A stretch of 64,000 bases of DNA, taken from the sequence record DRR723986_643; one strand, given 5' to 3'. Under the pieces are notes generated by a model. The model was not told the origin of the DNA. It ran no database searches and was given only the letters and a program-made list of their open reading frames with translations. The position numbers were made by a program, and so were the translations under genes. This document shows positions 44,402-64,000 of this stretch, piece by piece (the first letter of the stretch is position 1; every line of letters begins with the position of its first letter).

Positions 44402-44563
44402 TAGTTTTCACCGATGCCATTGGTAAGGTTAAACAACACCGTTAACCCGGCACACCGGCGGACAGTCTGCGAAGGCAGGCTGGCGTGTTGACTGCGCGCC
44501 GCGATTGCCTGACGGAACGGAAAGCCGCGTTTGCCAACCCAACAGGACCCTGTCACTGACCGC

Positions 44564-46205: not shown

Positions 46206-46319
46206 AGAAAATACGGTGGACCAGCGCTGCGAGCCGATTGCGGCACCGGTGCTTTCACGCTAGTCTCACCATACTAAGGCCGCGATTTGACGGCCAAACA
46301 GCCCAAACCCGGAGGGGAT

Positions 46320-48803: not shown

Positions 48804-48811
48804 TGACCACT

Positions 48812-48868
48812 CCCTGCCGTCCCGGCAGGGCATCGACGCCCTCCCCTCCGGGGGCGGGCGTATTGTTT
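48812..48868 (+). terminator. Twin hairpins after the TonB receptor (leaky terminator or mRNA stabiliser)
   Basis: CCCTGCCG-TCC-CGGCAGGG, then ACGCCCTCCCC-TCCG-GGGGCGGGCGT followed by ATTGTTT. Confidence 0.5.
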
Positions 48869-48876
48869 GGTGACAC

Positions 48877-50742
48877 ATGAAACATAGGATTTCCCGCCGC
48901 GACTTCGTCAGCGGCATAGCCCTCGGTGCGGCAGGACTCCATCTATCGCCCCTGGAGGCGGTGGCACAAGGTTTGCTGCCGGCATCGAGCATTGGCCCGG
49001 ATTATTACCCACCGGCACTGACCGGAATTCGAGGCAGTCACGCCGGTTCCTTCGAAGTCGCCCATGCGGTAGCGCGCGAAGGCAGGTCCTTTCCGCTACC
49101 CAAGCAGGTGAGCGAACAGGTTTACGACCTGGTCGTCGTGGGCGCCGGCATCTCCGGCCTGTCCGCGGCCAAGTTCTTCCGTGACCGTCACGACAGTGAC
49201 AGCCGGATCCTGGTACTGGACAACCACGACGATTTCGGCGGCCATGCGCGCCGCAACGAACTGGATGTCGACGGGCAGACCCTGCTCGGTTATGGCGGCA
49301 GCCAGACCATCGACAATCCCTCCGCTTACTCGCCGGTAGCGAAACAGCTGCTGCGGGACGTTGCGATCGACACCGATCGCTTTTATGACTACTTCGACCA
49401 GACTTTCTTCAGCCGACGCAATATGACGGCGGGCCTGTACTTCGACCCGGCAAGCTATGGCCGGCACCAGATCGTCGCCAACCCGATTGAGGCGGATGGG
49501 CTGACGCCGGAGCAGCTGGAAGCCGCAGTACGGGCCATGCCCATACCACCGGAAGACCAGACGGCCTTCCTCACCCTGCTGGCAGGGGGCGTGGATTACC
49601 TGGCAGGTAAAAGCCTGGCGGAGAAGGAAGCCCTGCTGCGCAATATCAGCTATCTCGACTACCTTGAGCAGTACGCCGGCGTTCCCGCGTCAGTGCGTGA
49701 GATCCTGCGCGATTCCTTCCTGCCGATGATTGGTGTGGGCTGGGAAGCAGCTTCCGCCTGGGAGGCGCTGGAATACCAGTTCCCCGGCACGGCAGATCTG
49801 GGGGGTGGCGTGCACCACGAACGTTCTGAACCCTACATCCATCACTTCCCCGACGGCAATGCCGGCGTCGCGCGATCCCTGGTCCGCGATCTGATTCCGG
49901 AGGCCATGCCAGGCAAGAGCATGGAAGACCTGGTTACCACCCGGGCCAACTACGCGGCGCTGGACCGCGAGGGATCGCCAGTCAGGGTGCGCCTCAACAG
50001 CACCGTGGTGCAGGTACGCAACAGCGTCGACGGCAGCGGGGTTGACGTCACCTACGTCAACAAGGGCAATGCCTACCGGGTGCGCGCCAGGCACGTGGTG
50101 ATGGCCTGCTACAACGGGATCATCCCGCATATCTGCCCGGAGGTACCCGAGGCACAGGCGTCAGCGATCCGCTACGCCACCAAGATACCCTTCGTGATCG
50201 GCAGCTTTGCCATCCGTAACTGGCAGGCCTTTGCCGACGCGGGCTATTACATGCTGTACACCCCGGGCGACGTGCTGTTCAAGCGTATGCGGCTGGACTT
50301 CCCGGTAAGCATGGGCGACTACCAGTTTGCGCAGAAGCCCGACCAGCCGATCGTGATTTCCGCCTGGCACTCGCCGACCGCCCGTGGCCTGCCGAACATG
50401 CAGCAGTACAAGGCGGGTCGCGCAAAGCTGCTGCAGATGAGCTACACGGATTTTGAGCAGGACATTTTCTCCCACATGGACGGCATGCTGGGCCCGCACG
50501 GATTTGACGCGGAGCGGGACATCGCGGCCATCACCCTGAACCGCTGGCCCCACGGCTATGCCTACGAGTTCGAGGGGATCGGGGTGCCCGCAGAATATGA
50601 CCGCTATAACGGCCCGCACATCGCGGGGCGAGCGCAAATCGGCCGCATATCCATCGCTAACTCGGATTCCGAGGCCTATGCTTATGTCGACGGCGCGATC
50701 GATGCAGCCTCCCGCGCGGTGAATGAGCAGCTCGCGATTTAG
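48877..50742 (+). CDS. spdH: Tat-exported flavo(hemo)protein, spermidine dehydrogenase-like
   Basis: SRRDFV Tat motif; YYPPALTGIRGSHAGSFEVAH, VVGAGISG, DNHDDFGGHARRNE, HFPDGNA, NRWPHGYAY, matching the Pseudomonas SpdH family as I recall it. Confidence 0.8.
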   Translation: MKHRISRRDFVSGIALGAAGLHLSPLEAVAQGLLPASSIGPDYYPPALTGIRGSHAGSFEVAHAVAREGRSFPLPKQVSEQVYDLVVVGAGISGLSAAKFFRDRHDSDSRILVLDNHDDFGGHARRNELDVDGQTLLGYGGSQTIDNPSAYSPVAKQLLRDVAIDTDRFYDYFDQTFFSRRNMTAGLYFDPASYGRHQIVANPIEADGLTPEQLEAAVRAMPIPPEDQTAFLTLLAGGVDYLAGKSLAEKEALLRNISYLDYLEQYAGVPASVREILRDSFLPMIGVGWEAASAWEALEYQFPGTADLGGGVHHERSEPYIHHFPDGNAGVARSLVRDLIPEAMPGKSMEDLVTTRANYAALDREGSPVRVRLNSTVVQVRNSVDGSGVDVTYVNKGNAYRVRARHVVMACYNGIIPHICPEVPEAQASAIRYATKIPFVIGSFAIRNWQAFADAGYYMLYTPGDVLFKRMRLDFPVSMGDYQFAQKPDQPIVISAWHSPTARGLPNMQQYKAGRAKLLQMSYTDFEQDIFSHMDGMLGPHGFDAERDIAAITLNRWPHGYAYEFEGIGVPAEYDRYNGPHIAGRAQIGRISIANSDSEAYAYVDGAIDAASRAVNEQLAI

Positions 50743-50801
50743 CGAATTTGCCGGCGGGCAGAACTATCAGAAGCAGTCTTCACGTTTAAAGAGGAAAGAC
50801 T

Positions 50802-51245
50802 ATGAACAAAATCATCAGCACAGTATGCGCACTGGTACTGGCAGGCAACGCACTGGCGGCAGACCAGGCAACCGTCGTGCCAGTGAAGATCACCCCCGAT
50901 GATATGGCAGGGGCAATCTTCGAGCGCGAGGACATGACCGAAACCACGCACGAGGACGGCCACGTCACCCTGGATGTGACCAGCCTGCTGTCCAGCGACA
51001 AGAAGTTCGCCTCAGGCATGTACAAGTCTGGGAAAACGCGCGCCGAAATCAACGAACCCTATGGCGTTGACGAGTTCATGTACTTCCTTTCCGGCAGCGT
51101 TACCCTGACCTCCAGCGACGGCACGGTGCAGACAATCAATGCGGGTGAAGCGGTCACCATTCCCAGGGAGTGGACCGGCATCTGGGATACCGACGGCTAC
51201 ACCAAGATCTGGGTGATTTACTCGGCAGACGGCTCAGGGCTCTAA
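50802..51245 (+). CDS. Exported cupin (DUF861/EutQ-like)
   Basis: Signal peptide (NALA); DEFMYFLSGSVTL...AGEAVTIPREWTGIW. Confidence 0.8.
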   Translation: MNKIISTVCALVLAGNALAADQATVVPVKITPDDMAGAIFEREDMTETTHEDGHVTLDVTSLLSSDKKFASGMYKSGKTRAEINEPYGVDEFMYFLSGSVTLTSSDGTVQTINAGEAVTIPREWTGIWDTDGYTKIWVIYSADGSGL

Positions 51246-51264
51246 ACAGCGTCACCTGCCAGCC

Positions 51265-52860
51265 ATGAACGCCAAGCGCTTCGACGCCATTGTCCTTGGT
51301 GCCGGCCACAACGGCCTGACTACGGCCAATTACCTCGCCATGGGCGGCATGAACGTCTGCGTACTGGAGCAGCGCGAGGTGGTCGGCGGCGCGGCGGTCA
51401 GCGAAGAATTCCACCCCGGGTATCGCAACTCGCTGGCCTCCTACGTGGTCAGCCTGCTGCGTCAGGAAGTAGTCAGGGACCTGGAGCTTGAGCGTTATGG
51501 CTACGAGCCCATCCTGCTGGAGAACACGCTTTACCTCGACTCGCGGGGTGACTACCTGCTGCTGAACGGCAACGAGGCGCACGACCGGGCACAGTTCGCG
51601 CGCTTCTCGGCCACCGACTATGACGCGATGCACGCCTTCGAGGACAGCGTCGACAAGGTCGGCAGCATTCTCGCCCAGCAGTGGCTGCGCGAGCCTCCGA
51701 AGCTGCACGGCGGCGGCCTCAGCGACCTGCTCGACAGTGTAAAGCTGGGCCTGGACGTCTATCGCCTGGACGAGGACAGCCGCTGGCGCCTGCTGCAGTT
51801 TTTCCTCGGCGCCCCGCAAAGCATCATCGATCGCTGGTTCGAAAGCGATAAGGTCAAGGCCATGGTTGCCGCGCATATCATGCCCGCCAACTACACACCC
51901 CTGAGCCAACCCGGGGCCAGTCTCGCCATGCTCCATCACGCGGTGGGCGAGGTCGGCGGGCGCAAGGGGGCCTGGGGCCTGGTACGCGGTGGCATGGGCA
52001 CCATTACCCAGGCCATGGCGAGCTCCGCCCGGGACAAGGGCGTCACCATCCGCACCGGCGTACCTGTGGAACGCATCCTGGTGGAGAACGGCGCGGTCAC
52101 CGGCGTACAACTGGCAGGTGGCGAAACCCTGGCATGCCCGCTGGTTGCGGCCAATACCGACCCGAAGCGGACTTTTCTCACCTTGCTCGGGGAACAACAC
52201 CTGCCGGCCGACTTCGTGCGCGACATCCGCGCCTTCCGCCAGGAGTCGGCGTCACTGAGGATGAACCTTGCGCTCAGCGCGCTGCCGGAATTCGCCGCGC
52301 TGCCGGGAGCGAGCATCGGCCCGCAGCACCGGGCCAGTATCAGCCTGATCGAAAGCATGCAGCACGTGGACCAGGCTTACTGCTCCGCCAAGCTGGGCAT
52401 TCCCGCGGACCCGCCGATCGTCGAAGCCATCATTCCCAGCGCCAGCGACGACAGCCTGACCGACACCCCGGGCACCCATGTCATGAGCCTGCTGTGTAAG
52501 TACATGCCCTATGACCTCGCCAACGGCGAGCACTGGGACACCAGGAAGCCGGCGGTAGTCGAGGCGGTGCTGGATCATGTAGGCAAGTTCATTCCCAACC
52601 TCGGGGACATCCTGGTCCACGCGCAATGCCTGTCGCCCCTGGATATCGAGCGCCTGTTCGGTATGACCCGGGGCGATATCTGTCACGGGCGTATGGAACC
52701 CGACCAGCTGTACAGCGCCCGCCCCCACCCGCAGGCTGCCCAGTACGCGACACCGGTAAAAGGCCTGTACCTTTGCGGCTCAGGCACCCATCCGGGCGGT
52801 GGCGTCACCGGCGCACCCGGGCACAATGCCGCACGCCGAATCCTGAAAGACCAGCGCTGA
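51265..52860 (+). CDS. PYROXD2/phytoene-dehydrogenase-like FAD oxidoreductase (paralog 1)
   Basis: GAGHNGL, EEFHPG, GGMG, GDICHG, LYLCGSGTHPGGGVTGAPGHNAA. Confidence 0.88.
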   Translation: MNAKRFDAIVLGAGHNGLTTANYLAMGGMNVCVLEQREVVGGAAVSEEFHPGYRNSLASYVVSLLRQEVVRDLELERYGYEPILLENTLYLDSRGDYLLLNGNEAHDRAQFARFSATDYDAMHAFEDSVDKVGSILAQQWLREPPKLHGGGLSDLLDSVKLGLDVYRLDEDSRWRLLQFFLGAPQSIIDRWFESDKVKAMVAAHIMPANYTPLSQPGASLAMLHHAVGEVGGRKGAWGLVRGGMGTITQAMASSARDKGVTIRTGVPVERILVENGAVTGVQLAGGETLACPLVAANTDPKRTFLTLLGEQHLPADFVRDIRAFRQESASLRMNLALSALPEFAALPGASIGPQHRASISLIESMQHVDQAYCSAKLGIPADPPIVEAIIPSASDDSLTDTPGTHVMSLLCKYMPYDLANGEHWDTRKPAVVEAVLDHVGKFIPNLGDILVHAQCLSPLDIERLFGMTRGDICHGRMEPDQLYSARPHPQAAQYATPVKGLYLCGSGTHPGGGVTGAPGHNAARRILKDQR

Positions 52861-52867
52861 GCGAAGG

Positions 52868-54598
52868 TCAGCTCGCCAGCGGACCGTAGCGGCGGCGGAT
52901 AAGATAAAAACTGAACAGCCCCAGCGGCACGAAGAGCACGGCGGGACCAAAGGCGAACAGCGCCTCGGCACCTGACCAGTTGATCGATCCGTCAGCCAGC
53001 AGCTGCCCCGCACCCGCCTGGTAAGGCTTCACGTACCACTGCAGCAGCACAAAGGGCATAGCCAGCCCATACAGAACCAACAGCAGCGGTGCCACCAGGG
53101 TCGTGCGGGTCATGGCGGGATCACGGTCCTCGGACGGCGCCCGGTGCAGACGCATGCGGTACACCGCCTCAACGCGACTTACCCGACCGGCACGCGATAC
53201 CAGCACGATCGCCAGCAGGCTCGCCAGGGTGCCGAGCACCGCCGGGTCAAGGTAGCTGGGCAGCGAGATCCAGCCCAGATAGACCAGCGCCGCCGGTACA
53301 ACATTGCCAAGGAAGCCGCAGACGATTCCCCAGTAAGCGCCAGCGGCCGTAATACGCCGGCTCCAGATACTCATGAAACCCACCGGCCCCCAGGAGGAGG
53401 CGAACACCGTGCCGATAAACAACATGATCCAGAACACGTTCGGCGGCACCCAGTAGCAGGCGACCAGCACAACGAGGGCGACGAACAGGACCGCGCTGCG
53501 GGTCTTGCCGAGGGTAAGGTGACCGGGCCGCGGCGTGACGTCGTTGCTCACGCTGAATCCCACCAGGGACAGGAAGGTGGAAGCCGAGGACAGCGCCGCA
53601 GCCATGATACCGGCCAGCAGCAGGGCGCCGAGCAACTCGGGCACACTGTTCTTCGCCGCCCAGATAATCACTGTTTCCGAGGGGCTGATGCCAGGATTGA
53701 GGAGGTTGATCAGGCCGCCGGCACCATAAATGAGGATCTGCATCGCGATAACCGCAAAGCAGGCGTAGATCGCCGAGCGAATCACCACGTGCTCATTGCG
53801 CGCCATCAGGTGGCGGCTGGCCTGCCAGGGGCTGACTGCGTAGACCACCGCCCAGCTGATATCAATCACCACGAACCAGATCAGGAAATCCACGGCAGTG
53901 GGCCAGTCGGTGCCGGGGCCGATGATGCCGTGCCAGGACGTGATATCCGGCTTCACCTCGGAGCGGGTGAGCGCTTCGACGGATGACGCCACACCGCCGA
54001 GATCCTGAACCAGGAAGATAACGAATGCCAGCGTGGCCAGACCGAACAGCAGGAACATCATGGTGTCGGTGATGATCACGCCCCGTGAGCCGGCATACAT
54101 CGTAAACAAGGTATAGCTCAGCCAGGCGGCGAGCAGTGATTGCTCATAATCCAGAGCGGTGAGATCGGCCAGCAGTATGGCCGCGCCCTGGGTGACAACC
54201 AGCAGGTAGCCGCCCAGGCCGAGAATGATGGTGAGTCCCGCCGCCTGCTGCACCCGACGACTATTGAAGCGCTGGCCGAGGAAATCCGCGACCGTCGGCG
54301 CGCGACTGCGGCGCAGATAGGTGCCGAACAGCAGGGCACCGTAGACGTAACCGGTAACCGCAATACCCGGCAGGATGATATAGGCGCCCAACTGACCATC
54401 GTAAGTAAACGCGGCCTCACCGAGGAAGATCGAGGTACTGAACACACTGGCCACCAGTGTGCCCACGATCAGGAAGGTCGGCGCCCGCCTCCCGGCCACG
54501 AAGTAATCATCCAGCTGCTTGACCTGGCGCCCGCTGTAACTGCCCACGAAGACAAACAGGGCAACGCTGACAATGATCGTGGCGGTGTACAGGTCGAT
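52868..54598 (-). CDS. Sodium:solute symporter (SSS family); probable ATC start at 54598
   Basis: DYFVAGR, GTLVAS, GVIITD, AGIMAAALSSA. The frame extends 17 codons upstream of GTG 54547, encoding TM1 (IDLYTATIIVSVALFVFVG), with GGAGG 8 nt before ATC. Confidence 0.85.
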   Translation of the reverse strand: MDLYTATIIVSVALFVFVGSYSGRQVKQLDDYFVAGRRAPTFLIVGTLVASVFSTSIFLGEAAFTYDGQLGAYIILPGIAVTGYVYGALLFGTYLRRSRAPTVADFLGQRFNSRRVQQAAGLTIILGLGGYLLVVTQGAAILLADLTALDYEQSLLAAWLSYTLFTMYAGSRGVIITDTMMFLLFGLATLAFVIFLVQDLGGVASSVEALTRSEVKPDITSWHGIIGPGTDWPTAVDFLIWFVVIDISWAVVYAVSPWQASRHLMARNEHVVIRSAIYACFAVIAMQILIYGAGGLINLLNPGISPSETVIIWAAKNSVPELLGALLLAGIMAAALSSASTFLSLVGFSVSNDVTPRPGHLTLGKTRSAVLFVALVVLVACYWVPPNVFWIMLFIGTVFASSWGPVGFMSIWSRRITAAGAYWGIVCGFLGNVVPAALVYLGWISLPSYLDPAVLGTLASLLAIVLVSRAGRVSRVEAVYRMRLHRAPSEDRDPAMTRTTLVAPLLLVLYGLAMPFVLLQWYVKPYQAGAGQLLADGSINWSGAEALFAFGPAVLFVPLGLFSFYLIRRRYGPLAS

Positions 54599-54634
54599 GC
54601 TCGTAGCCTCCTGCGCCGGCGGCAGCCGGACTCG

Positions 54635-56215
54635 CTAGCGGTCGCGCAGAATCGCGCGTGCCGCGTTATGCCCCGGCAAGCCGCTCACCCCGCCTCCCGG
54701 GTGAGCCCCGGAACCACAGAGATACACACCCTCAACCGGCATCCGGTAATTTGCGTGCCCCGGGATCGGCCGCAGCGAATAGAACTGGTCGAGGTGCAGG
54801 GCGCCGTGGAAGATATCGCCGCCCACCATGCCCAGGTCGCGCTCGATATCCAGCGGCGTCTTGATCTGGCGCCCGACCACCGAGGCCCGGAAGTTGGGTG
54901 CGTACTGGTCGATGGTGTCGATCACCAGGTCGGCAACTTCCTCGCGCACAGCGTCCCAGTCCTGCCCCTCGGGCAGATGGCGCTGGAAATGCTGGCAGAA
55001 CAGGCTTGCCACATGGCCACCCGGAGGTGCCAGGGAGTCGTCCTGGGTACTGGGGACCTGCATCGAGATTACCGGCCGGCGGGACCAGCCCTGCTGCCGC
55101 GCATCATAGTAGGCATCCTGGATGTAACCCAGGGAGGGGCTGACCTCGATTGCGCCCAGGAAGTGCTCGTCGCCACGGCCGGCCATGCTCGAAAAGCGCG
55201 GCAGCTCCGACAGGGCGACATTCATTCGGAAGGTGGCAGAGTGACTGCGGTAATGGGCTATCCGGCGCTGGTCCGGCTCGTCCATCAGGCCCGGATCGAG
55301 CAATTTCTGCAGCAGGGTCTGCGGGTGCACATTGGCAGCGATAAAACGCGTGCTGAGTTCGCGGCCATCGGCGGTGCGAACGCCACAGGCAGTGCCGTCC
55401 CGAGTAAGGATTTCGCTGACCGGGGTACCGGTTTCGATACGCGCTCCCTTGCTGCGCGCGAAGGACGCCATCGACTCACTGATCGCACCCATGCCGCCCC
55501 GCGCAATACCCCAGGCACCCGCGCGACCTTTCACCTCGCCAAAGGCATGGTGCAACAGCACGTAGGCGGTGCCGGCATGGTAGGGCTCGGCAAAATTCCC
55601 AATGACGCCCTCCAGACCCAGCACGCCCTTGAACGCCTCACCCTCAAACCAGCTATCGAGGTAATCACCGAGCGAACGGGTCATCAGCTCGGCGAGGATG
55701 ATCTGATGCTGTTTGTCGAGCTTGCGGAACACATTGCCCGCCTTGAGTAAGGTCACAGCGTCACGCCAGCCACCGCCAAGGTTGGGCGGGGCCTGCACCG
55801 CCAGTTCGCGCAAGGCCATAGCGACGGTGGCAATACCGGCATCGAACTCATCTACCCGCTCGGCATCGCGGCGGGAAAAGCGCGCGATCTCAGCCCGCGC
55901 CTGGGCGCCGTCGCGGGTCAGCAGCAAATGATCGTTTTCCAGCAGGCTGAGGGTCCCCGCCGGGCGCTCCAGGATTTCCAGGCCGTGTCGCTCCAGCTCC
56001 AGGTCGCGGATTACCCCGGGGTGCAGCAGGCTGACGGAATAGGAATACACCGAATTACGGAAGCCCGGGTGAAACTCCTCGGTCACGGCGGCGCCACCCA
56101 CCACGTCCCGGGCCTCCAGTACCGTGACCCGCAGGCCGGCCTTCGCCAGGTAGCCTGCACAGGCCAGGCCATTGTGGCCGGCACCGATGACAATAACGTC
56201 TGTATCCGTCGCCAC
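54635..56215 (-). CDS. PYROXD2/phytoene-dehydrogenase-like FAD oxidoreductase (paralog 2)
   Basis: GAGHNGL, EEFHPGF, GGMG, GDIFHG, YLCGSGAHPGGGVSG. Confidence 0.88.
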   Translation of the reverse strand: MATDTDVIVIGAGHNGLACAGYLAKAGLRVTVLEARDVVGGAAVTEEFHPGFRNSVYSYSVSLLHPGVIRDLELERHGLEILERPAGTLSLLENDHLLLTRDGAQARAEIARFSRRDAERVDEFDAGIATVAMALRELAVQAPPNLGGGWRDAVTLLKAGNVFRKLDKQHQIILAELMTRSLGDYLDSWFEGEAFKGVLGLEGVIGNFAEPYHAGTAYVLLHHAFGEVKGRAGAWGIARGGMGAISESMASFARSKGARIETGTPVSEILTRDGTACGVRTADGRELSTRFIAANVHPQTLLQKLLDPGLMDEPDQRRIAHYRSHSATFRMNVALSELPRFSSMAGRGDEHFLGAIEVSPSLGYIQDAYYDARQQGWSRRPVISMQVPSTQDDSLAPPGGHVASLFCQHFQRHLPEGQDWDAVREEVADLVIDTIDQYAPNFRASVVGRQIKTPLDIERDLGMVGGDIFHGALHLDQFYSLRPIPGHANYRMPVEGVYLCGSGAHPGGGVSGLPGHNAARAILRDR

Positions 56216-56241
56216 TTCCTATCCCCGCCTGTGCTGCATTG

Positions 56242-57462
56242 TTAATTGCCCTGGATTTCCGGCGGCGGCGTCGCCCGCGCTCTTGCCGGGGCCCAGAAGG
56301 GCTGGTCCCTGACCGTGCAAAGCGCCACCTTGCGATAGTAGCGAAGTTCCTTCCGGTAGTAGATCTCGGCCCAGATAGCACCAGACAGGGCGGCGGTTTC
56401 GACCATCGCCAGCGCGATATTGGCTTTCACCGCCGGTGACCACATGGCGGATGTGATGTAGCCGATCTCCTTGCTGCAGGACTTGCTGCTATAAAGAATC
56501 GCGTCATCTGCCGGCTTGTTGCCCTCGATGTCCAGCTTCACCAGGGTAAATCGCGGCCCCCGCTCACGTTCCTCGAGCAATGCCCTGCGGCCGTTGAAGT
56601 GGGGCTTGCTGAAATCCACCAGCCAGCCCAGGTTCAACTCGTAGGGCGTCTGGTCATGCTGGAAGTGGATTGTTTTCAGCGCCTCCGAGAATTCCATATC
56701 GGGCATGATGAACCCCGCTTCCATGCGCGCCATATTGGTCGCCGCCTCGCCGTAGGGGTGAATGCCGTGGTGCTCACCCGCTGCATACAGGGCGTCCCAC
56801 AAGGCCAGTGCCTGCGCGGGCTCAATCCACAGTTCGTAACCCAGATCGCCGGTGAAACCGGTGCGGGACACCATCAGCTGCTCTCCATTGAACGGGAAAT
56901 GCATAACGCCAAAGGGTTTCAGGTTCTCGATACCCTCCAGGCCCATGGCCTTGAGGGTGGCGCAGGAGGTCGGGCCCTGCAGCGACAGGGCGGCAATCCG
57001 GTCGCTCATATCGACCACAGTGAGATCGTCAAAGCCGCAAGCGCTCTTGCGCAGCCAGGCCAGGCAGGGGCTGCCACAGGTGAGCATGAACCGGTCCTCG
57101 CCGAGGCGGAAAATCGTCCCGTCGTCGACCATACGACCCTCATCGGTACACCAGCACACGTAGGTCACCCGGTCGATCGCCAGTTTGCCCAGGTCGCGGG
57201 TGACCATGCGATCAAGCATCGCCAGGGCGTCGGGGCCACTCACATAGTATTTCTGCATGGGGCAGATATCGTAGGTCCCGCAGGTATTACGAATGCAGAA
57301 GTACTCGTAGCCGGCGTCGTAGTAGTAGTCGGCGAACTTGTAGCCGTTCCAGGACGACCAGGCATCACGCAGGTTCAGCGGCGCCTGTCGCGGGTGAAAA
57401 TGCGACAGCCGCAAACGCTCACCGGCAAAGGGATCATCCTGCCGTGCGCCATCACTCGTCAT
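56242..57462 (-). CDS. GcvT-like THF-dependent aminomethyltransferase/demethylase
   Basis: DICPMQKY, GRMVDDGTI, LQGP, SRTGFTGDLGYELW, ARMEAG, GYITS; ATG 57462 is 9 nt after GGAGG and overlaps the upstream stop. Confidence 0.88.
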   Translation of the reverse strand: MTSDGARQDDPFAGERLRLSHFHPRQAPLNLRDAWSSWNGYKFADYYYDAGYEYFCIRNTCGTYDICPMQKYYVSGPDALAMLDRMVTRDLGKLAIDRVTYVCWCTDEGRMVDDGTIFRLGEDRFMLTCGSPCLAWLRKSACGFDDLTVVDMSDRIAALSLQGPTSCATLKAMGLEGIENLKPFGVMHFPFNGEQLMVSRTGFTGDLGYELWIEPAQALALWDALYAAGEHHGIHPYGEAATNMARMEAGFIMPDMEFSEALKTIHFQHDQTPYELNLGWLVDFSKPHFNGRRALLEERERGPRFTLVKLDIEGNKPADDAILYSSKSCSKEIGYITSAMWSPAVKANIALAMVETAALSGAIWAEIYYRKELRYYRKVALCTVRDQPFWAPARARATPPPEIQGN

Positions 57463-59071
57463 AGCAATCATCCTCCGGCACGGTGTTGGGCCGCTTCAGG
57501 TCGAGCAGGATTTCCCGGGCCGCATTCGCACCGCAGGCAGAGGAAACGCCACCGCCGGGGTGGGTCGACGAACCGCACATATACAGGTTCTTGACCGGCA
57601 TACGGTACTGCCCGTAACCCGGGAAGGGGCGGTTGAACAGCAACTGGTCGATGGTCAGTTCGCCCTGGAAGATGTTGCCTTCGGTGAGCCCGATCTCGTT
57701 TTCAATCTCGTGCGGCGTGCGCACCTCCATGTGGACGATAAGGTCCTTGAAGCCAGGGCTGTGACGCTCGATCTTGTCGATCACTGTCTGCCCGAACTGG
57801 TCCCGCTTCTCCGGCGTCCACGGACCATCCGCCAGCTCCGGCGGACAGTACTGGATAAAGTTGGACATCCAGTGCTTGCCGACCGGCGCCACCGTGGGAT
57901 CCCAGGCCGAGGGAATGATCGACTCGATGAACGGATCCTCCGACCAGCGCCCGCGTTTCCAGCAGTCGTAGGCACGCTCCATGGTCTCCAGGGAGCCGAC
58001 GAAGGTCTGTCCGCCACGGTTGATATAGCGGTTGTCCGGCAGACTGCTGAATGTCGGCAGGCCCGAGAGCGCAATATTGACCTTGCCGGAAGAGCCGCGG
58101 ATCTTGAAATTGCTGGCCCGCTCATAAATGCCGGGGGGCACATCCGCCTTGTCCATGACCCGGGTGAAGGTGCGCCGCGCGTCGAGGTTGGATACCACGA
58201 TCCGGGCCTGGATCTCATCGCCGTTCTCCAACGCCACCCCGACCGCCTGGCCGTTCCTCACCAGAATCTGCCGCACTCCCGACCCGGTACGTAGCTCGCC
58301 GCCCGCGGCCTGCAGAGCGCCGGCGAGCGCCTTGGAGATCGCGCCCATGCCACCCCGGGCCAGACCCCAGGCGCCGACATTGCCGTCGACATCGCCCATC
58401 ACGTGGTGCAACAGGATGTAGGCGGAGCCGGGCGAGTACACCCCCAGGGCGGTGCCGATAATGCCCGGACTGGCCATGGCCGCCTTGATCAGGTCGTTCT
58501 CGAAATAATCATCGAGGAAGTCGGCGGCGCTCATGGTGAAAAAGCGCACGTACTCGTAGAGTTCGCGTTCGCCCAGGGACCAGAACTCACGGGCGAGAAA
58601 CAGCAGTTCACGAATATCCCGCGGCCTGAAAGAGCTGGGGTCCGGCGGGGTACGCAACAGGGTCTTGCGAATCAGCTGCGCGTAACGACCGAGGTCGGCC
58701 TGAAAGCGGGCCATGGCATCCGCGTCATGCGGCGAGTGGCGCTTCAGTTCGAGGTAGCTGGCGGCCTCGGTCGGATAGTCGATCAGGGTCTTGCCATCGT
58801 GGCCGAAGGCCACTGTTCCAAGATAGGGGACCAGCAACAGACCATGCCTGGCCAGGTCGAGATCGCGGTGAATGGCCTGGCGCATCATGCTGCACACGTA
58901 GGAGCAGCTGGAATAAAACCAGCCTTCCTGCAGCTCGCGGGTCACCGCCGCACCACCGATATAGTCGTTCTTCTCCACCACCAGGACGTCGAGACCCGCC
59001 CTGGCCAGGTAGGCAGCATTGGTCAGGCCATTGTGGCCTGCACCGACGACAATGGCGTCATAGCGCTTCAC
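57452..59071 (-). CDS. PYROXD2/phytoene-dehydrogenase-like FAD oxidoreductase (paralog 3)
   Basis: GTG 59071 in a GTGA overlap; GAGHNGL, GGMG, GNIFQGEL, LYMCGSSTHPGGGV. Confidence 0.88.
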   Translation of the reverse strand: MKRYDAIVVGAGHNGLTNAAYLARAGLDVLVVEKNDYIGGAAVTRELQEGWFYSSCSYVCSMMRQAIHRDLDLARHGLLLVPYLGTVAFGHDGKTLIDYPTEAASYLELKRHSPHDADAMARFQADLGRYAQLIRKTLLRTPPDPSSFRPRDIRELLFLAREFWSLGERELYEYVRFFTMSAADFLDDYFENDLIKAAMASPGIIGTALGVYSPGSAYILLHHVMGDVDGNVGAWGLARGGMGAISKALAGALQAAGGELRTGSGVRQILVRNGQAVGVALENGDEIQARIVVSNLDARRTFTRVMDKADVPPGIYERASNFKIRGSSGKVNIALSGLPTFSSLPDNRYINRGGQTFVGSLETMERAYDCWKRGRWSEDPFIESIIPSAWDPTVAPVGKHWMSNFIQYCPPELADGPWTPEKRDQFGQTVIDKIERHSPGFKDLIVHMEVRTPHEIENEIGLTEGNIFQGELTIDQLLFNRPFPGYGQYRMPVKNLYMCGSSTHPGGGVSSACGANAAREILLDLKRPNTVPEDDCYDE

Positions 59072-60609
59072 TTGAGGATCTCCCGCGCGGCATTGTGCCC
59101 GGGGCCTCCCATCAGGCCACCACCGGGGTGGCAACCCGCGCCACAAAGATACAGACCAGGAATCGGCGTGCTGTACTGCGCCGCTTCGTAGGTGGGGCGC
59201 ATCATCAGCAGCTGGTCGACGGCAAACTCCGTGTGATGCCAGTGACCACCGGTCACATGGTGCGTCGCCTCCAGGTCAGCGGGCGTCAGCAGCTCGGCCT
59301 GCAGCACCAGGTCGCCCAGGCCAGGCGAATACTCTTCCAGGGTGGCCATGACCCGCTCGGTCAGCCGGGCGCGGGCCTCCTCGGTCCAGCCGCCCTTCAA
59401 CCGGGCCGGTACATACATGATGTGGGCAGACAGCACATGCTGTCCCGGTGGCGCCAGTGACGGGTCGTGCAGGCTGGGAATCAGCAGCTCCAGCACCGGG
59501 TTCTCGGAGCACTGCCCGTACTTGGCGTCGTCAAAGGCAAACTCTATGGCATCGGGCTCGGGTGCAATGATCATCCGGCCGTCGGCTCGCTCCAGTCCGG
59601 GAAAGCGGGGCAGGTCCCGCAGGGCCAGGTGCAGCTTGGCCACATAACCTTCGCAGCGCAGGCGCTGGATGCGGTTGGTAAATTCGATTTCCAGGTGACG
59701 CGCGCCTACCAGTTGCAGGAAGGTCCGCTGCGGGTCGGCGGAAGACACCACCCGCTGCGCCTGAATCCGCTCGCCGTCAGCCAGCTCAACCCCGGTCGCC
59801 CGCAAACCCTGCTCGTCGCCAGCAACAAGGATTCGCGACACGGGGGTAGAAAAACGCAGCTCCGCACCGGCCGCGGTCGCCGCGGCCTGCAGGGCACCGA
59901 CCAGGCCCTCGATGCCGCCGGCGGGCACGCTGTGCAGGCCGCGATGTTCTCCCAGCATCCGGTACAACAGCGCGAACACCGGGCTGTTGGGCGAGCGCGG
60001 CGCCAGCTTCGACCCGATGAGCCCGTCCCAGCTGAGCGCAGCCTGCAGACGCTTGTTATCGAAGTTTTCATCCATGAGGTCGCGCATCGGCAAGGTGGCT
60101 ACCCGCAGGAATTCAAGCATGTCCGCCTTGCCCAGCATCCGCAGCCTCAGACCCAGCTTGCCGAAAGTAAGCAGTTCGCCGGCGCTGTTATTGCCAATGC
60201 GCGGCATGGTCCTGGTCCAGAAGGGCTGCAGGGCGCGAGCAAACTTTTTCAGCGACTCGCGATAGCGCGGGTATGTAGCTGCGTCCTCATCGCCAACCCC
60301 GGTAACCCGGGAGTCCTCAATCACGATGTGCTCACCGGCGGGGTCGAGGGCCACAGTGGCCAGCGCCGGCCCTGGCTGGTAACCGTGGGCGGCCAGCTTC
60401 AATTCAGCTGCGACCTGCGGTGAGAACTGGTTGACGCTGTGGGCGACCGACGCCCGAAAGCCGGGATGGAATTCCCGGGTCGACGCCAGGCCACCGGCCA
60501 TGGCTGCGGCCTCCAGCACCAGCACCCGCTGTCCCTGTCCGGCAAGGTAGGCGGCACAGATGAGCCCGTTGTGGCCGGCGCCGATAACAATCGTGTCGTA
60601 GCTGTTCAT
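59068..60609 (-). CDS. PYROXD2/phytoene-dehydrogenase-like FAD oxidoreductase (paralog 4, divergent)
   Basis: GAGHNGL, EFHPGF, FDDAKYG, GGHWHHTE, LYLCGAGCHPGGG; ATG 60609. Confidence 0.88.
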   Translation of the reverse strand: MNSYDTIVIGAGHNGLICAAYLAGQGQRVLVLEAAAMAGGLASTREFHPGFRASVAHSVNQFSPQVAAELKLAAHGYQPGPALATVALDPAGEHIVIEDSRVTGVGDEDAATYPRYRESLKKFARALQPFWTRTMPRIGNNSAGELLTFGKLGLRLRMLGKADMLEFLRVATLPMRDLMDENFDNKRLQAALSWDGLIGSKLAPRSPNSPVFALLYRMLGEHRGLHSVPAGGIEGLVGALQAAATAAGAELRFSTPVSRILVAGDEQGLRATGVELADGERIQAQRVVSSADPQRTFLQLVGARHLEIEFTNRIQRLRCEGYVAKLHLALRDLPRFPGLERADGRMIIAPEPDAIEFAFDDAKYGQCSENPVLELLIPSLHDPSLAPPGQHVLSAHIMYVPARLKGGWTEEARARLTERVMATLEEYSPGLGDLVLQAELLTPADLEATHHVTGGHWHHTEFAVDQLLMMRPTYEAAQYSTPIPGLYLCGAGCHPGGGLMGGPGHNAAREILK

Positions 60610-60702
60610 TGAGGGGCGCACCGGCCTGACCTTGATACCGCACAGGCTAACGGCGCCCGCCTCCGGGAACAAGCGCCGCCGAGGGACGGACTATTTTCCC
60701 GC

Positions 60703-62745
60703 TCAGGCAACGGCCGCCACGTCGACTGTACAGTCGTAGTAACAGGCGCCACCGGCGAGATCGGCCTTGTGTCCGGGGATCAGTGCGTTGATGGTCTGCC
60801 CGGTCGGGCTCTCGGCGATCCACGCTCCCTTGGGAACGAACAGGGTGCCGGTCCTGACCCGGTCAGATATCTGCAGTGGCAGATGCACTTCTCCCAGATC
60901 GTTGAACAAGCTCACCTGCACGCCCTGCTCCAGCCCGAGGGAGTCGGCGTCCGCAGGATGCATTTCACAGACCAGGTCCTTGTCGTGTCGCGCTACGCCA
61001 CCCAGGGTCGAGTTGATGCGCCGCTCGGAGGCGGGGCTGACCACGACAAAACGGCGTGCGGACCGGAGCTCGCGAAACCCCGGCAGACCCTGGCCGCACT
61101 CGGCCTCAAGCGCCGCGCTGTACAGCTCGATCCTGCCGCTGGGCGTGGCCGGCGGCAGGCCGCGAAGCAGCCCAGGCGGCGAAACTGCCGACATATCCAG
61201 TGCGCTGTCCGTCGGCAGCTCACTGGGACGCAGGCCACCGAGAGCCGGTGCATCCGGCTCAATGGCCTGGTCCATCAGCGCTGCATCGGAGTCACGAAAG
61301 CAGGCTTCCTCAAAACCAAACCGAGCCGCCAGCCTGCGGAACAGTTCGGTATTGGGCAAGGCCTCACCTACCGGCGCCAGCACGGGGGCGGATCGCTGCA
61401 GGTAATGATGGCCGTAGGCTTTGTACAGATCACCGTATTCCAGGTGACTTGCCGCCGGCAGGATGACGTCGGCACAGGCCATGGAATCCGTCATGCTGAG
61501 ATCCGATCCGACCACGAACAGCGACTCATCCAACAGCGCGGCGCGCATCCCGCGCTGGCGTGGGTGTACCGCAACCGGGTTGTGGTTATAGATGAAGACG
61601 GCTTTCACCGGGATCGCGTCACCCGGGTCCCCGATATGGTCCGGCAGATCGAGGACATTGAACTCGCGCAGTCCCGGCGGAGCCAGGTCAGGGCGACTGA
61701 GGGCTTCCGAGGCCACCGGGAAATACCCGGAGACATCGCAGACCCCGGCGCCGGGCTCGCCAAAATTCCCGGTGAGCGCCGGCAGCGCGAACAAGGCGCG
61801 CAGGCCAGAGCCACCATTGCGATTGCGTTCCGGTGCGACACCCACGGAAATCGCCGCGGGGCTGAGTTCCCGCCAGTAGCGCGCGAACTGGTAGATATCC
61901 TCCACCGCCAGCCCACAGAGTGCGGCCGCTCGCTCCGGCGGGTACTGCGCTGCCCGGTCGAGGAATTCGCGCGCGCCCAGCACATGCTCTGCGATGAAGC
62001 TGTCGTCCAACCCGCCCTCCTGCTCCAGCAGGGCCGCCACCGAATACGCCAGCACCACGTCGGTGCCCGGCATGACCGGCAGGTGCAGGTCAGCAGTTTC
62101 GGCAATGCGGGTGCGCTTGGGGTCGACCACCACCAGGCGGGCACCCCGCTTGCGGGCATCGCGCAGCAGGGTAGTCAGGTGCAGGTTGCAGGCGGTGATA
62201 TTGTTACCCCAGACCACAATCAATCGCGAATGCGCGAGCTCGGCATAAGAGATGCCACCAACCTCACCGAACACGCTGTCCCAGGCCGCGCTCGATGCCC
62301 CGGTGCACAGGGGCGTGGAGTCCACCTTGCTGGCACCGAGACGGTTGAAGAAGCGCTGGTCCATGGACCCGCCCGCCAGCAGCCCCATCGGACCGCCATA
62401 GGTCAGAGGCGCGATCGCCTCGCTGCCATATTCCCCAATGATCTGCTGAAAGCGCTCGTACACAGTATCCAGGGCCTGCTCCCAGGATACCGGGCGAAAA
62501 GCCATCGCGCCCTTGGGCCCGTCGCGCAGCAACGGGGTCAGCAGTCGCTGGGGGCCGTGGACCAGTTCCGGCAGGCCCTCGGCCACCTTGGCGCAGATCT
62601 TGCCGCGGGTGAAGGGGTTCGCATGACTGCCGCGGACGCGGTCTACCTTGCCATCGACGACATCGATCGACAGGCTGCAGGTGTCCGCACAATCGAGGGG
62701 ACACACGCTGGGCAGGCTGGTGGCGACGGGCTCGGCGGATGACAT
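60703..62745 (-). CDS. Cytoplasmic molybdopterin (bis-MGD) oxidoreductase with N-terminal [4Fe-4S] cluster
   Basis: CPLDCADTC...GKICAK, VWGNN, VDP, PGTD, ADVILPAA, INST, EMHPADA; no signal peptide. Confidence 0.88.
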   Translation of the reverse strand: MSSAEPVATSLPSVCPLDCADTCSLSIDVVDGKVDRVRGSHANPFTRGKICAKVAEGLPELVHGPQRLLTPLLRDGPKGAMAFRPVSWEQALDTVYERFQQIIGEYGSEAIAPLTYGGPMGLLAGGSMDQRFFNRLGASKVDSTPLCTGASSAAWDSVFGEVGGISYAELAHSRLIVVWGNNITACNLHLTTLLRDARKRGARLVVVDPKRTRIAETADLHLPVMPGTDVVLAYSVAALLEQEGGLDDSFIAEHVLGAREFLDRAAQYPPERAAALCGLAVEDIYQFARYWRELSPAAISVGVAPERNRNGGSGLRALFALPALTGNFGEPGAGVCDVSGYFPVASEALSRPDLAPPGLREFNVLDLPDHIGDPGDAIPVKAVFIYNHNPVAVHPRQRGMRAALLDESLFVVGSDLSMTDSMACADVILPAASHLEYGDLYKAYGHHYLQRSAPVLAPVGEALPNTELFRRLAARFGFEEACFRDSDAALMDQAIEPDAPALGGLRPSELPTDSALDMSAVSPPGLLRGLPPATPSGRIELYSAALEAECGQGLPGFRELRSARRFVVVSPASERRINSTLGGVARHDKDLVCEMHPADADSLGLEQGVQVSLFNDLGEVHLPLQISDRVRTGTLFVPKGAWIAESPTGQTINALIPGHKADLAGGACYYDCTVDVAAVA

Positions 62746-62794
62746 GGCACGGACTCCCTGTTGTCGAGCTTACTACTATAGCCCAGGACGGGGT

Positions 62795-63718
62795 TCAGCC
62801 GCTGGCGCGCATGTGCAGAAACTGCAGCGCCAACGACGCCCCGGCAAGCGCGGTGATATCCGCATGATCGTAAGCGGGGGACACCTCAACCACATCGAAG
62901 CCAACAATATTGAGGTGCGACAAGCCCTCGAGGATGCGCAGGGCCCGCGAGGTGGACAAACCGCCTACCACCGGCGTGCCGGTGCCGGGCGCAAAGGCCG
63001 GATCCAGGCAATCGATATCAAAGGTCAGGTAAGCCGGGCGTTCGCCGACCCGGCTGCAAATGGCCTCCACTATCGCTGCCACCGAGGATTCATTGGCCTG
63101 ATGGGCGTCGATAACCTGGAAGGCGTGGTTGGCACGGTCGTAGTCCGTGCGAATGCCAATCTGGATCGAGTGCGCCGGATCGATAAGCCCCTCCCTCGGC
63201 GCCCGGTGGAACATGCAGCCGTGGCTGTACTTTTCTTCCTCATCGTAGGTGTCGGTGTGCGCATCGAAGTGAATCAGCGCCAGCTCGCCATGAGTCTGTG
63301 CAGTGCCGCGCAGCAGCGGCAGGGTAACGAAGTGATCGCCCCCCAGCGCCACCAGGGTCTTGCCCGCCCCGGTGATCCGGGCTGCGTGGGCCTCAACCCG
63401 GGCGAGCATGTCCTCTGAATCGCCAAACAGGAACTGCACATCGCCATAGTCCGCCACCCGCAGCCTGTCGGCGAGGGCGAAATCCCAGGGCCAGCGCTTG
63501 TCTTCCCAACGCAGGTTAGCGCTGGCCTGGCGTATACCGGTGGGACCGCTGCGGGTGCCCGCGCGCCCGCTGGTGCCCAGGTCATAGGGTACGCCCATCA
63601 CGAAGGCGTCCAGCTCCGGATCATCGACATCGCGACTCAGGGGCAGGCCCATAAAACCAAAGACGTTGGCATACATCGAGTATTCGCTGCCCGGAAAATC
63701 GCTCTCGGAATCCCTCAC
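62795..63718 (-). CDS. speB: Agmatinase (ureohydrolase family)
   Basis: GVPYD, GPTGIRQAS, GGDHFVT, HFDAHTD, SHG, FDIDCLDPAFAPGTGTP, DVVEVSP. Confidence 0.88.
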   Translation of the reverse strand: MRDSESDFPGSEYSMYANVFGFMGLPLSRDVDDPELDAFVMGVPYDLGTSGRAGTRSGPTGIRQASANLRWEDKRWPWDFALADRLRVADYGDVQFLFGDSEDMLARVEAHAARITGAGKTLVALGGDHFVTLPLLRGTAQTHGELALIHFDAHTDTYDEEEKYSHGCMFHRAPREGLIDPAHSIQIGIRTDYDRANHAFQVIDAHQANESSVAAIVEAICSRVGERPAYLTFDIDCLDPAFAPGTGTPVVGGLSTSRALRILEGLSHLNIVGFDVVEVSPAYDHADITALAGASLALQFLHMRASG

Positions 63719-63754
63719 CTCTTACTCCCTGCTTATCAGTCACACCCTGCCCGG

Positions 63755-64000
63755 CTAAAGGCAGGCGTCGTATTCCAACGGCGTTACCTGGCGATCAAAT
63801 TCGTCCATTTCCTGCTGCTTGAGCAGCACGAAAACCCGCTGGAACTCTTCGCCAAAACGTTCCCGGATGAAGTCAGAGGATTCGAACCGGGCCAGGGCAT
63901 CCGGCCAGTACCGCGGCAGACTGGCGGGCACTTGCTCATAGGCATTGCCTTCAAGCGGTTCGGGGGCCTCCAGCTTGCGTTCTATCCCCTCGAGGATGCC
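63755..64000 (-). CDS. C-terminal part of a glutamine-synthetase-family gamma-glutamylpolyamine synthetase (PuuA/PauA-like); not in the ORF track, truncated by the window
   Basis: My translation: GILEGIERKLEAPEPLEGNAYEQVPASLPRYWPDALARFESSDFIRERFGEEFQRVFVLLKQQEMDEFDRQVTPLEYDACL-stop(TAG 63757-55); lies upstream of agmatinase. Confidence 0.8.
   Translation of the reverse strand, partial: GILEGIERKLEAPEPLEGNAYEQVPASLPRYWPDALARFESSDFIRERFGEEFQRVFVLLKQQEMDEFDRQVTPLEYDACL

Follow-up and report, generated by a model that had tools for sequence, protein, structure and literature searches.

In this study we analysed a 64,000-nucleotide stretch of sequence record DRR723986_643 (hereafter the window), in which four flavoprotein genes of the CrtI/PYROXD2 family, P1 to P4, surround one gene for a GcvT-like protein at 51265..60609. 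We found that the real unit of this cluster is the trio P4-P3-GcvT, which constitutes one conserved, translationally coupled module. We propose that P4, P3 and the GcvT-like protein may act together as a cytoplasmic, folate-coupled flavin amine dehydrogenase for the removal of N-methyl groups, either as its subunits or at the least as obligate partners, and we regard the chances of this proposal as evenly balanced. A split folate-coupled amine dehydrogenase is the best reading of the data because the module is conserved and coupled, lies in an amine-catabolic context and includes a GcvT-like protein resembling Tdm and the T-proteins of the GcvT family. We infer complex formation, N-demethylation, the use of folate and the respective roles of P3 and P4 from gene anatomy, conservation, coupling, family membership and context. 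An earlier note on the window had suggested that P3 and P4 form a heterodimeric amine dehydrogenase passing one-carbon (C1) units to the stand-alone GcvT-like protein; this central idea is plausible and is now better founded, the heterodimer itself being a putative one.

The P4-P3-GcvT trio is conserved across genomes

One genome per species was scanned with the GcvT-like protein, and the best 80 of at least 593 confirmed relatives were taken as the locus set, in which genes were called by tblastn of the window proteins and matches were kept if more than half of the query was covered. The set comprised 42 type A loci, where GcvT was 62-84% identical to the window protein, and 38 type B loci, where the identity was about 50%. 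Flavoprotein-family genes were located directly upstream of GcvT and on the same strand in all 65 loci that had at least 3300 nucleotides (nt) of upstream sequence, this being a count of flavoproteins beside GcvT and not of GcvT beside P3/P4 pairs. The association of PYROXD2-like and GcvT genes, for which the earlier note had proposed neighbourhood statistics as a check, was borne out in this direction. The flavoprotein order was P4-P3 in 36 type A loci and P3-P4 in 27 type B loci, the exceptions being L049, which showed a P3-like match only, and L068, where the P3-like gene was split in two. Among the 15 shorter loci, 8 carried the expected partial genes and 7, with less than 1 kb of upstream sequence, carried nothing. 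The recurrence of the P4-P3-GcvT order in dozens of genomes implies that the arrangement is not due to chance, and among the loci fetched the trio occurs in many marine and soil bacteria.

The spacing of the genes was measured in 32 type A and 17 type B trios (49 in all) that consisted of three consecutive same-strand open reading frames (ORFs), each with more than 80% of the query aligned; sets outside these limits were left out. Start codons were placed nearest to the position homologous to the window start. The two flavoprotein genes overlapped by 4 nt in 27/32 type A trios and by 1-8 nt in 13/17 type B trios. The distance from the second flavoprotein gene to GcvT lay within -20 to +34 nt for all but two of the 49; one of these two gave no value, and the other stood at -94 nt, its start codon being uncertain. 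The window itself has the same anatomy: the sequence GTGA contains both the stop codon of P4 and the GTG with which P3 begins, and the P3 stop (57452) overlaps the GcvT gene by 20 nt if the ATG at 57471 is used or by 11 nt if translation begins at the alternative ATG at 57462, so that both the coupling and the subsequent overlap described in the earlier note were confirmed. The later start is suggested by the length of the orthologues, which is 398-403 amino acids (aa). The conserved adjacency and the overlaps therefore strengthened the earlier claim that P3, P4 and GcvT belong together, but the part it assigned to P1 and P2 was not supported, as described below.

In five loci (L008, L011, L017, L018 and L021) type A and type B sets lie side by side within a few kb, which suggests two substrate specificities per locus. 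In the literature we found no paper describing the trio, none joining phytoene dehydrogenase or desaturase with aminomethyltransferase, and none joining aminomethyltransferase either with an FAD (flavin adenine dinucleotide)-oxidoreductase and polyamine or with spermidine dehydrogenase.

P3 and P4 belong to separate lineages of the flavoprotein family

The earlier observation of four paralogous flavoproteins around the GcvT-like gene held, all ORFs being found with lengths of 513-539 aa. P1 to P4 all matched the Pfam families Amino_oxidase, DAO and NAD_binding_8, with Amino_oxidase (PF01593) scores of 53-84 bits versus a cut-off of 19.8 and an E value of 1.1e-20 for P4. For the other three proteins the identity to P1 was 44, 37 and 35%. 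The N-terminal GxGxxG is present, GAGHNG being invariant or nearly so in the orthologues of P3 and P4, and the C-terminal HPGGG dinucleotide-binding segment is kept in both. A FastTree tree was built from 137 rows, comprising the 4 window proteins and 133 family ORFs of 480-640 aa that remained after a length filter had removed 12 of 145 ORFs. The P4-type proteins (68 rows) were set apart from all others by a branch with support 100 and the P3-type proteins fell within a 60-row set (support 100), with P1 and P2 in 4-row clades joined together (98). Judging from these sequence comparisons, the P3 and P4 lineages are distinct and of long standing.

Each lineage has its own signature at the C-terminal motif. 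TEGNIFQGELT was invariant in 50 sequences of P3 orthologues, of which the type A members were 78-91% identical to the window P3, and GHWH was invariant in 50 sequences of P4 orthologues, with 53-77% identity of the type A members to the window P4. When residues common to P1, P2 and a plant homologue were used as the reference, P4 was changed at 14 family-conserved positions that are invariant in P3, among them S57/Y58, N332, the H222-H223 pair and the Ile of the motif, for which P4 has Trp, and P3 was changed at 5 family-conserved positions, including the motif His, replaced by Gln. A further difference is the acidic tail RPNTVPEDD[FC]YDE (P3 residues 526-539, window 57452-57493), which was found in all type A P3 proteins and in a shorter form in part of type B, and is absent from P1, P2 and P4; this tail is a candidate docking peptide. 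With a threshold of E<=1e-3 a P4 profile retrieved 35,931 cluster representatives, and tightening it to E<=1e-30 left 2,997. Among the best 150 of these matches, the aligned motif read GHWHH in 46 and GHW[HN][HQ] in 49, and the P4 type is therefore itself diverse.

The CrtI-type three-domain fold was recovered in the predicted structures of both proteins. The P3 model had a mean predicted local distance difference test score (pLDDT) of 83.7 and a predicted template modelling score (pTM) of 0.87, and the P4 model had values of 89.6 and 0.90; the best PDB fold match was CrtD 4rep in both cases, with template modelling (TM) scores of 0.73/0.80 for P3 and 0.73/0.76 for P4. By sequence the nearest solved protein was CrtI (1.6e-16 for P3 and 1.4e-17 for P2). 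In the fold searches, monoamine oxidase, putrescine oxidase, NicA2 and 6-hydroxynicotine oxidase were nearly as good as CrtD/CrtI. Since the models match both groups, the fold leaves it undecided whether a C-C or a C-N bond is oxidised. The segments GDICHG, GDIFHG, GNIFQG and GHWHHT do share one aligned position, as the earlier note implied, but its label of active-site segments was not established by the P3 and P4 models: the P3 motif (462-470) had a pLDDT <50, and a poorly predicted stretch of P4 (470-477) lies just past the motif (454-460).

These matches raise the alternative that the flavoproteins are carotenoid or isoprenoid/lipid C-C desaturases, ketolases or isomerases, to which the GcvT neighbour would be incidental. 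In addition to the CrtI and CrtD matches at the top of the PDB sequence and fold rankings, the best NCBIfam model for P1 to P4 was CrtO ketolase (NF045689), with 231-276 bits. However, this is far under the cut-off of 1000, and the scores for crtI_fam (TIGR02734) were 94-125 bits, under the cut-off of 238. Moreover, no phytoene-synthase or prenyl-synthase Pfam match was obtained among the 48 window ORFs scanned, in agreement with the earlier note, which had reported the lack of crtB and crtE, and neither such a synthase nor any other carotenoid-pathway gene was present among the annotated families of neighbouring genes in the 80 loci. The linkage to GcvT, on the other hand, is invariant. We therefore consider this alternative highly improbable.

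The GcvT-like protein is a predicted folate protein

The GcvT-like protein matched Pfam GCV_T (9.4e-58, 195.9 bits) and GCV_T_C (34.2 bits), both past the cut-off. Its best NCBIfam match was the C-terminal half of Tdm (NF053776; 247 bits, 4e-73, model positions 386-760, cut-off 1100), followed by the GcvT equivalog models PRK00389 (202.9 bits, cut-off 300) and TIGR00528 (149.8 bits, cut-off 235.85), neither of which was reached. It likewise did not reach the models of SoxA (144 bits, 4.3e-42, cut-off 1164), DmdA (NF009133; 132 bits, 2.1e-38, cut-off 410), DesA (72.5 bits, cut-off 800) or LigM (61 bits, cut-off 580). As all these scores lie under the curated cut-offs, the protein is not an orthologue of any characterised enzyme. 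In the PDB ranking Tdm 9q5a came first (1e-47, residues 426-748), ahead of T-proteins (1.5e-42 and 8.5e-39), SoxA, DMGO and DMGDH, and the alignments to Tdm and the T-proteins run through the folate domain.

The DD and SRTGFTGDLGYE segments of the protein are kept invariant. In an alignment of 49 sequences D116 and D117 were invariant and S202-E213 (SRTG-TGDLGYE) was nearly all invariant; these positions align with the DD and SRTGYTGE segments of the T-proteins and Tdm. In T-proteins the DD is a conserved acidic pair in the folate pocket with a catalytic role. On the basis of these alignments the GcvT-like protein is nearest to domains that turn formaldehyde-level carbon into methylene-tetrahydrofolate (methylene-THF), and it is predicted to be a folate protein.

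Neither gcvH nor gcvP was found beside the GcvT-like gene among the window ORFs and the neighbours in the loci, and the protein differs from the full-length DUF1989 + GcvT architecture in having no DUF1989 half. Its close relatives number in the hundreds; the 120 listed had 74-87% identity, were named only "aminomethyltransferase (family protein)" and came from Halioglobus, Haliea, Congregibacter, Oceanicoccus and many metagenome-assembled genomes. The longer homologues were DUF1989, SoxA-type and DAO fusions at 28-36% identity, plus three rows at 48-52%. One of these three, P0122, is an apparent GcvT-CoA-ligase-domain protein. The other apparent fusions, P0121 and P0123 (flavoprotein-GcvT) and P0242 and P0243 (flavoprotein-flavoprotein, retrieved from the P3 side), contain garbled, out-of-frame linkers, and the arginine-rich nonsense in these linkers indicates that all four are artefacts, that is, frameshifted read-throughs of overlapping genes. 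P0241 is a clean tandem of a P3-like module and a GGHIFHG-type (non-P4) module; it occurs on one 4.3-kb contig and was not used.

Genes surrounding the trio in other genomes

The neighbour ORFs of the 80 loci were clustered at >=30% identity over 70% of the length, and the representatives were scanned against Pfam and NCBIfam. The resulting counts (Table 1) are lower bounds, many loci being truncated. The common theme of the neighbourhood is the catabolism of polyamines and betaine-like amines, with occasional formaldehyde/folate genes. PuuB-like genes were also found among the amine-catabolic neighbours of the trio outside the window, and relatives of the window symporter (>=50% identity) occurred in 10/80 loci.

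Table 1. Gene families recurring beside the trio in type A (n=42) and type B (n=38) loci (numbers of loci, lower bounds).
Locus type	Neighbour	Loci	Remarks
A	AraC-SnoaL regulator	26	
A	DAO-family oxidase	21	best models pipecolate oxidase and aminophosphonate oxidoreductase, under cut-off
A	conserved ~297-aa protein	20	
A	MOSC protein	10	
A	glutamine-synthetase (GS)-like protein	9	best model gamma-glutamylputrescine synthetase (PuuA-like), under cut-off
A	SpdH-like	9	
A	symporter	8	
A	TPR-sulfotransferase	8	
A	GFA	6	glutathione-dependent formaldehyde-activating family
A	Cupin_3	4	
A	class-III aminotransferase	3	
A	FolD	2	
B	class-III aminotransferase	19	directly upstream
B	aldehyde dehydrogenase	19	best model PuuC, under cut-off
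B	GbcA-like Rieske oxygenase	18	
B	PotA-type ABC ATPase	15	
B	ADP-forming acyl-CoA synthetase	13	
B	ACAD	8	
B	ECH	8	
B	carnitine 3-dehydrogenase-like	6	579 bits vs cut-off 592
B	BetI-type TetR regulators	5 and 4	
B	deacetylase-family (Hist_deacetyl) gene	2	

The polyamine context is strong, and it would also suit polyamine-oxidase-like flavoproteins that split unmethylated polyamines at their secondary amines, giving an aminoaldehyde besides an amine. In that case the GcvT-like protein would have a separate job, such as the direct, DmdA-like transfer of methyl to tetrahydrofolate from a quaternary or sulfonium compound, or an aminomethyl transfer that has nothing to do with the flavoprotein product. 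This explanation is consistent with the amine-oxidase folds that match P3 and P4 almost as well as CrtI does, with the existence of DmdA/LigM-type methyltransferases in the GcvT family and the match to the DmdA model at 2.1e-38, and with the BetI-type regulators, GbcA-like oxygenase and carnitine-dehydrogenase-like gene of type B loci. However, unrelated jobs would leave the 65/65 co-linearity, the overlaps and the two gene orders unexplained, and the DmdA (132 bits) and LigM (61 bits) scores are far weaker than those of Tdm (247) and GcvT (203). We judge this explanation quite unlikely.

Three of the recurring neighbours deserve separate mention. FolD (methylene-THF dehydrogenase/cyclohydrolase) is encoded two genes downstream of the type A GcvT, after the MOSC gene, in L011 (11868-12728, minus strand) and in L018. 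The ~297-aa protein adjoins GcvT in 20/42 type A loci (e.g., L003:11179-12072, minus strand) and is absent from the window; it had no Pfam or NCBIfam match, and the Atlas search gave unnamed clusters only. The TPR-sulfotransferase recurs mostly beside a TonB-dependent receptor (L006, L012, L026, L032-L034, L039 and L041).

Proposed mechanism and its weighing

If the trio is a split folate-coupled demethylase, P3, which retains nearly all family-conserved residues, would be the catalytic FAD subunit and would turn a secondary or tertiary N-methyl amine into an iminium by oxidising its C-N bond. The formaldehyde-level carbon would then be loaded by the GcvT-like subunit on tetrahydrofolate (THF) to give 5,10-methylene-THF, a role like that of the GcvT domains of DMGDH, sarcosine dehydrogenase, heterotetrameric sarcosine oxidase and trimethylamine N-oxide demethylase. 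P4, an old and strongly diverged paralogue with dinucleotide-binding motifs, may be a non-catalytic, structural or electron-transfer partner, or may provide a second site for the next demethylation. The remaining primary amine could be passed to the neighbouring aminotransferase or aldehyde dehydrogenase, or could be gamma-glutamylated and then oxidised. One paper describes DMGDH, sarcosine dehydrogenase and LSD1, a demethylase with the amine-oxidase fold, as enzymes that bind folate and produce formaldehyde (PMC4769866).

Alternatively, P3 and P4 may be separate enzymes for consecutive steps, for example from tertiary to secondary to primary amine, which share the GcvT-like protein as the folate-dependent C1 acceptor in the manner of DMGDH followed by sarcosine dehydrogenase. 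The GxGxxG and HPGGG segments retained by both proteins, their confident separate folds (pLDDT 83.7 and 89.6), the reversal of the P3/P4 gene order between type A and type B, and the aminotransferase, which acts on primary amines, directly upstream in 19/38 type B loci are all in keeping with two independent enzymes. On the other hand, the stop/start overlaps in 40/49 trios suggest equimolar synthesis, and P4 lacks 14 family residues, the motif Ile and the HH pair included, which is more easily reconciled with a non-canonical role than with a second ordinary active site. We consider consecutive enzymes unlikely, although with a somewhat better chance than the polyamine-oxidase-like function discussed above.

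Several points weigh against the interpretation of the trio as an N-demethylating complex. Agmatine, putrescine and spermidine carry no N-methyl group, and the context therefore supplies no substrate that would yield C1 units. P1 to P4 and the GcvT-like protein remain below every curated NCBIfam cut-off, so that no known function transfers to them, and the closest solved structures to P3 and P4 are carotenoid C-C desaturases and not amine oxidases. The GcvT family also includes enzymes that transfer methyl groups directly and work without an oxidase (DmdA, LigM/DesA). FolD was near the trio in 2/80 loci and GFA in 7/80, that is, in a minority only, and no electron-acceptor gene (electron-transfer flavoprotein or cytochrome) was conserved near the trio in the loci. 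The loci had been seeded with GcvT, and the counts are to be read accordingly. Finally, there was no genuine flavoprotein/GcvT fusion among the longer GcvT-like or P3 homologues, and we found no biochemical or genetic data for any trio member in the literature.

A more far-reaching version of the proposal would define a class of heterotrimeric folate-dependent N-methylamine dehydrogenases in which P3 and P4 are two sites for successive methyl groups, N-methylated (poly)amines are taken up via the TonB receptor and the symporter, each C1 unit is channelled by the GcvT subunit to methylene-THF, and PYROXD2 is, by homology, an oxidative N-demethylase of methyl-lysine-type amines; taken as a whole, we hold it to be a doubtful extension with a small chance of being right. 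A speculative example of substrates for the two sites would be pieces of the long-chain, N-methylated polyamines found in diatom silica; polyamines of this kind in algal biosilica are described in PMC12206195.

P1, P2 and the relation to PYROXD2

The earlier note had supposed that P1 and P2 extend the substrate range of the complex. This was not borne out: the two proteins belong to a separate lineage, P1 lies in the convergent SpdH operon, and no tie to GcvT was found. Relatives of P1 and of P2 (>=50% identity) occurred in 4/80 loci each, all of them Halieaceae-related. In L009, L002 and L003 the GcvT start precedes that of the P2 homologue by approximately 2.3, 5.0 and 6.5 kb, respectively, and P1 accompanies SpdH and the cupin both in the window and in L002. 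Both proteins keep the canonical motif of the family and resemble typical solitary members that were drawn into a polyamine locus.

P2 is 37% and P4 is 30% identical to a plant homologue with a GGNIFHG motif. The label "PYROXD2-like" stands for this identity (37% for P2) together with automatic Atlas cluster names, and not for a comparison with the human sequence. The function of PYROXD2 is described as little known, and associations of its variants with N2-acetyl,N6,N6-dimethyllysine and trimethylamine are reported (PMC13352909; PMC8777681; PMC3169529). We found no paper linking PYROXD2 with a bacterial demethylase, the only match being a seemingly unrelated study of mouse neuroanatomy.

Gene layout of the window

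The trio belongs to a minus-strand string with the order GS-like, agmatinase, molybdenum cofactor (Moco) enzyme, P4, P3, GcvT, P2 and symporter, in which the gaps are <=93 nt; the facing plus-strand string consists of the TPR-sulfotransferase, TonB receptor, SpdH homologue, cupin and P1 (Table 2). Locus L001 shares the window order from the GS-like gene through agmatinase, Moco enzyme, P4 and P3 to GcvT. The symporter gene, omitted by the earlier note, sits between P1 and P2 and thus inside the span of the four flavoprotein genes. A scan of positions 48500-64000 for promoters and terminators gave chance-level results, with 1 promoter-like site versus 3.0 expected and 11 terminator-like sites versus 8.9 in shuffled sequence.

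Table 2. Features of the window around the flavoprotein cluster.
Feature	Position	Strand	Remarks
TPR-sulfotransferase	44531-46162	+	Pfam Sulfotransfer_3 2.3e-47 + TPR
TonB-dependent receptor	46287-48803	+	Pfam Plug + TonB-dependent receptor barrel
SpdH (spermidine dehydrogenase) homologue	48877-50742	+	621 aa; PDB 7d9j, E 1.6e-147
EutQ-like cupin	50802-51245	+	Pfam Cupin_3 3.1e-9
P1	51265-52860	+	531 aa, GDICHG type, stand-alone; last gene of the convergent plus-strand string
sodium:solute symporter	52868-54547	-	Pfam SSF 1.2e-26; ends the minus-strand string
P2	54635-56215	-	526 aa, GDIFHG type, stand-alone; 26 nt downstream of the GcvT gene
stand-alone GcvT-family protein, predicted folate-binding	56242-57471	-	409 aa; start possibly 57462
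P3	57452-59071	-	539 aa, GTG start, EGNIFQGE type, acidic C-terminal tail
P4	59068-60609	-	513 aa, ATG start, divergent family member, GGHWHH type
cytoplasmic molybdopterin oxidoreductase, FdhF-like	60703-62745	-	Pfam Molybdopterin, Molydop_binding, Fe4S4
agmatinase, SpeB-type	62795-63718	-	PRK02190 422 bits (cut-off 302), TIGR01230 273 (cut-off 174)
glutamine-synthetase-like (PuuA-like) gene, 3' end	63755-64000	-	open-ended ORF leaving the window

The SpdH homologue aligns end to end with the solved SpdH (residues 5-617 versus 3-618) and has a twin-arginine-like N-terminus, RRDFV. By Pfam and NCBIfam it is a mere generic amine oxidase, and it is flanked by the TonB receptor and the cupin/P1 pair. 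The Moco protein, whose gene lies 93 nt upstream of P4, matched FdhF in the PDB at 7.8e-49 and was present in 5/80 loci (L001, L002, L003, L031 and L070), each time directly upstream of P4. Its identification as a formate dehydrogenase was unsupported: it has Cys-Thr (PLCTG) where FDH-H/FdhF have Sec/Cys-His, and its score was 234 bits against a cut-off of 666. The GS-like fragment at the right edge showed 33% identity over 79 aa to the GS-like neighbour family by tblastn. A gene of the RPE65/carotenoid-oxygenase family (31101-32621, minus strand; Pfam 2.6e-123) lies about 20 kb away amid fatty-acid/CoA genes and is unlinked to the flavoproteins.

Implications and comparison with known systems

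If the proposed function is correct, a large family that is routinely mis-named "phytoene desaturase family" or "NAD(P)/FAD-dependent oxidoreductase" would gain a function in the metabolism of amines and one-carbon units that can be tested, and the abundant marine and sediment Halieaceae, Woeseiaceae, Porticoccaceae and Steroidobacteraceae would gain a route from the methyl groups of amines to the folate pool. Cultured carriers of the trio are Lentisalinibacter, NOR5-3 and HTCC2080, with Halioglobus japonicus as a further candidate. PYROXD2, too, would gain a concrete hypothesis, namely that it may be an oxidative N-demethylase, its variants tracking methylated lysine derivatives and trimethylamine according to the papers cited above. 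Human PYROXD2, an orphan mitochondrial flavoprotein, belongs to the same broad family by automatic cluster names and plant-homologue identity; however, it is a single protein and the system described here is a trio.

The likeness to CrtI, CrtD and CrtO is one of fold and of Pfam/NCBIfam superfamily (TM 0.73-0.80 to 4rep), whereas the identity is about 18%, carotenoid context is absent, and in the window and the loci two differing proteins occur as a constant pair accompanied by a folate protein. The chemistry proposed here is that of DMGDH/DMGO, sarcosine dehydrogenase and 4-methylaminobutyrate oxidase, in which a flavin oxidises the C-N bond of an N-methyl group and the C1 unit is captured on THF by a domain of the GcvT fold, and the folate domains of DMGO 1pj5 (1.3e-23) and DMGDH 5l46 (1.3e-21) align with the window GcvT-like protein. 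In those enzymes, however, a DAO-type FAD domain is fused to GcvT, whereas the FAD proteins of the trio are of the CrtI/PYROXD2 type, exist as two diverged copies and are accompanied by a separate folate protein.

Heterotetrameric sarcosine oxidase combines a catalytic flavoprotein (beta) with a non-catalytic dinucleotide-binding module that bears a GcvT-like folate domain (alpha). SoxABDG and N-methylglutamate dehydrogenase are thus multi-subunit N-demethylases to which a catalytic P3, a diverged P4 and GcvT may be analogous, but they employ another flavoprotein family, no SoxB, SoxD or SoxG homologue was found among the window or loci neighbours, and the window GcvT is unfused to the flavoproteins. 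Tdm, which consists of DUF1989 and GcvT, comes nearest to the GcvT-like protein both in NCBIfam and in the PDB (TGELGYE in Tdm versus TGDLGYE in the window), although the identity to fused DUF1989 proteins is 30-36% and two flavoprotein genes take the place of the catalytic DUF1989 half. Taken together, the trio is best read as a three-gene form of the known logic of folate-coupled demethylases that makes use of an unexpected flavoprotein family.

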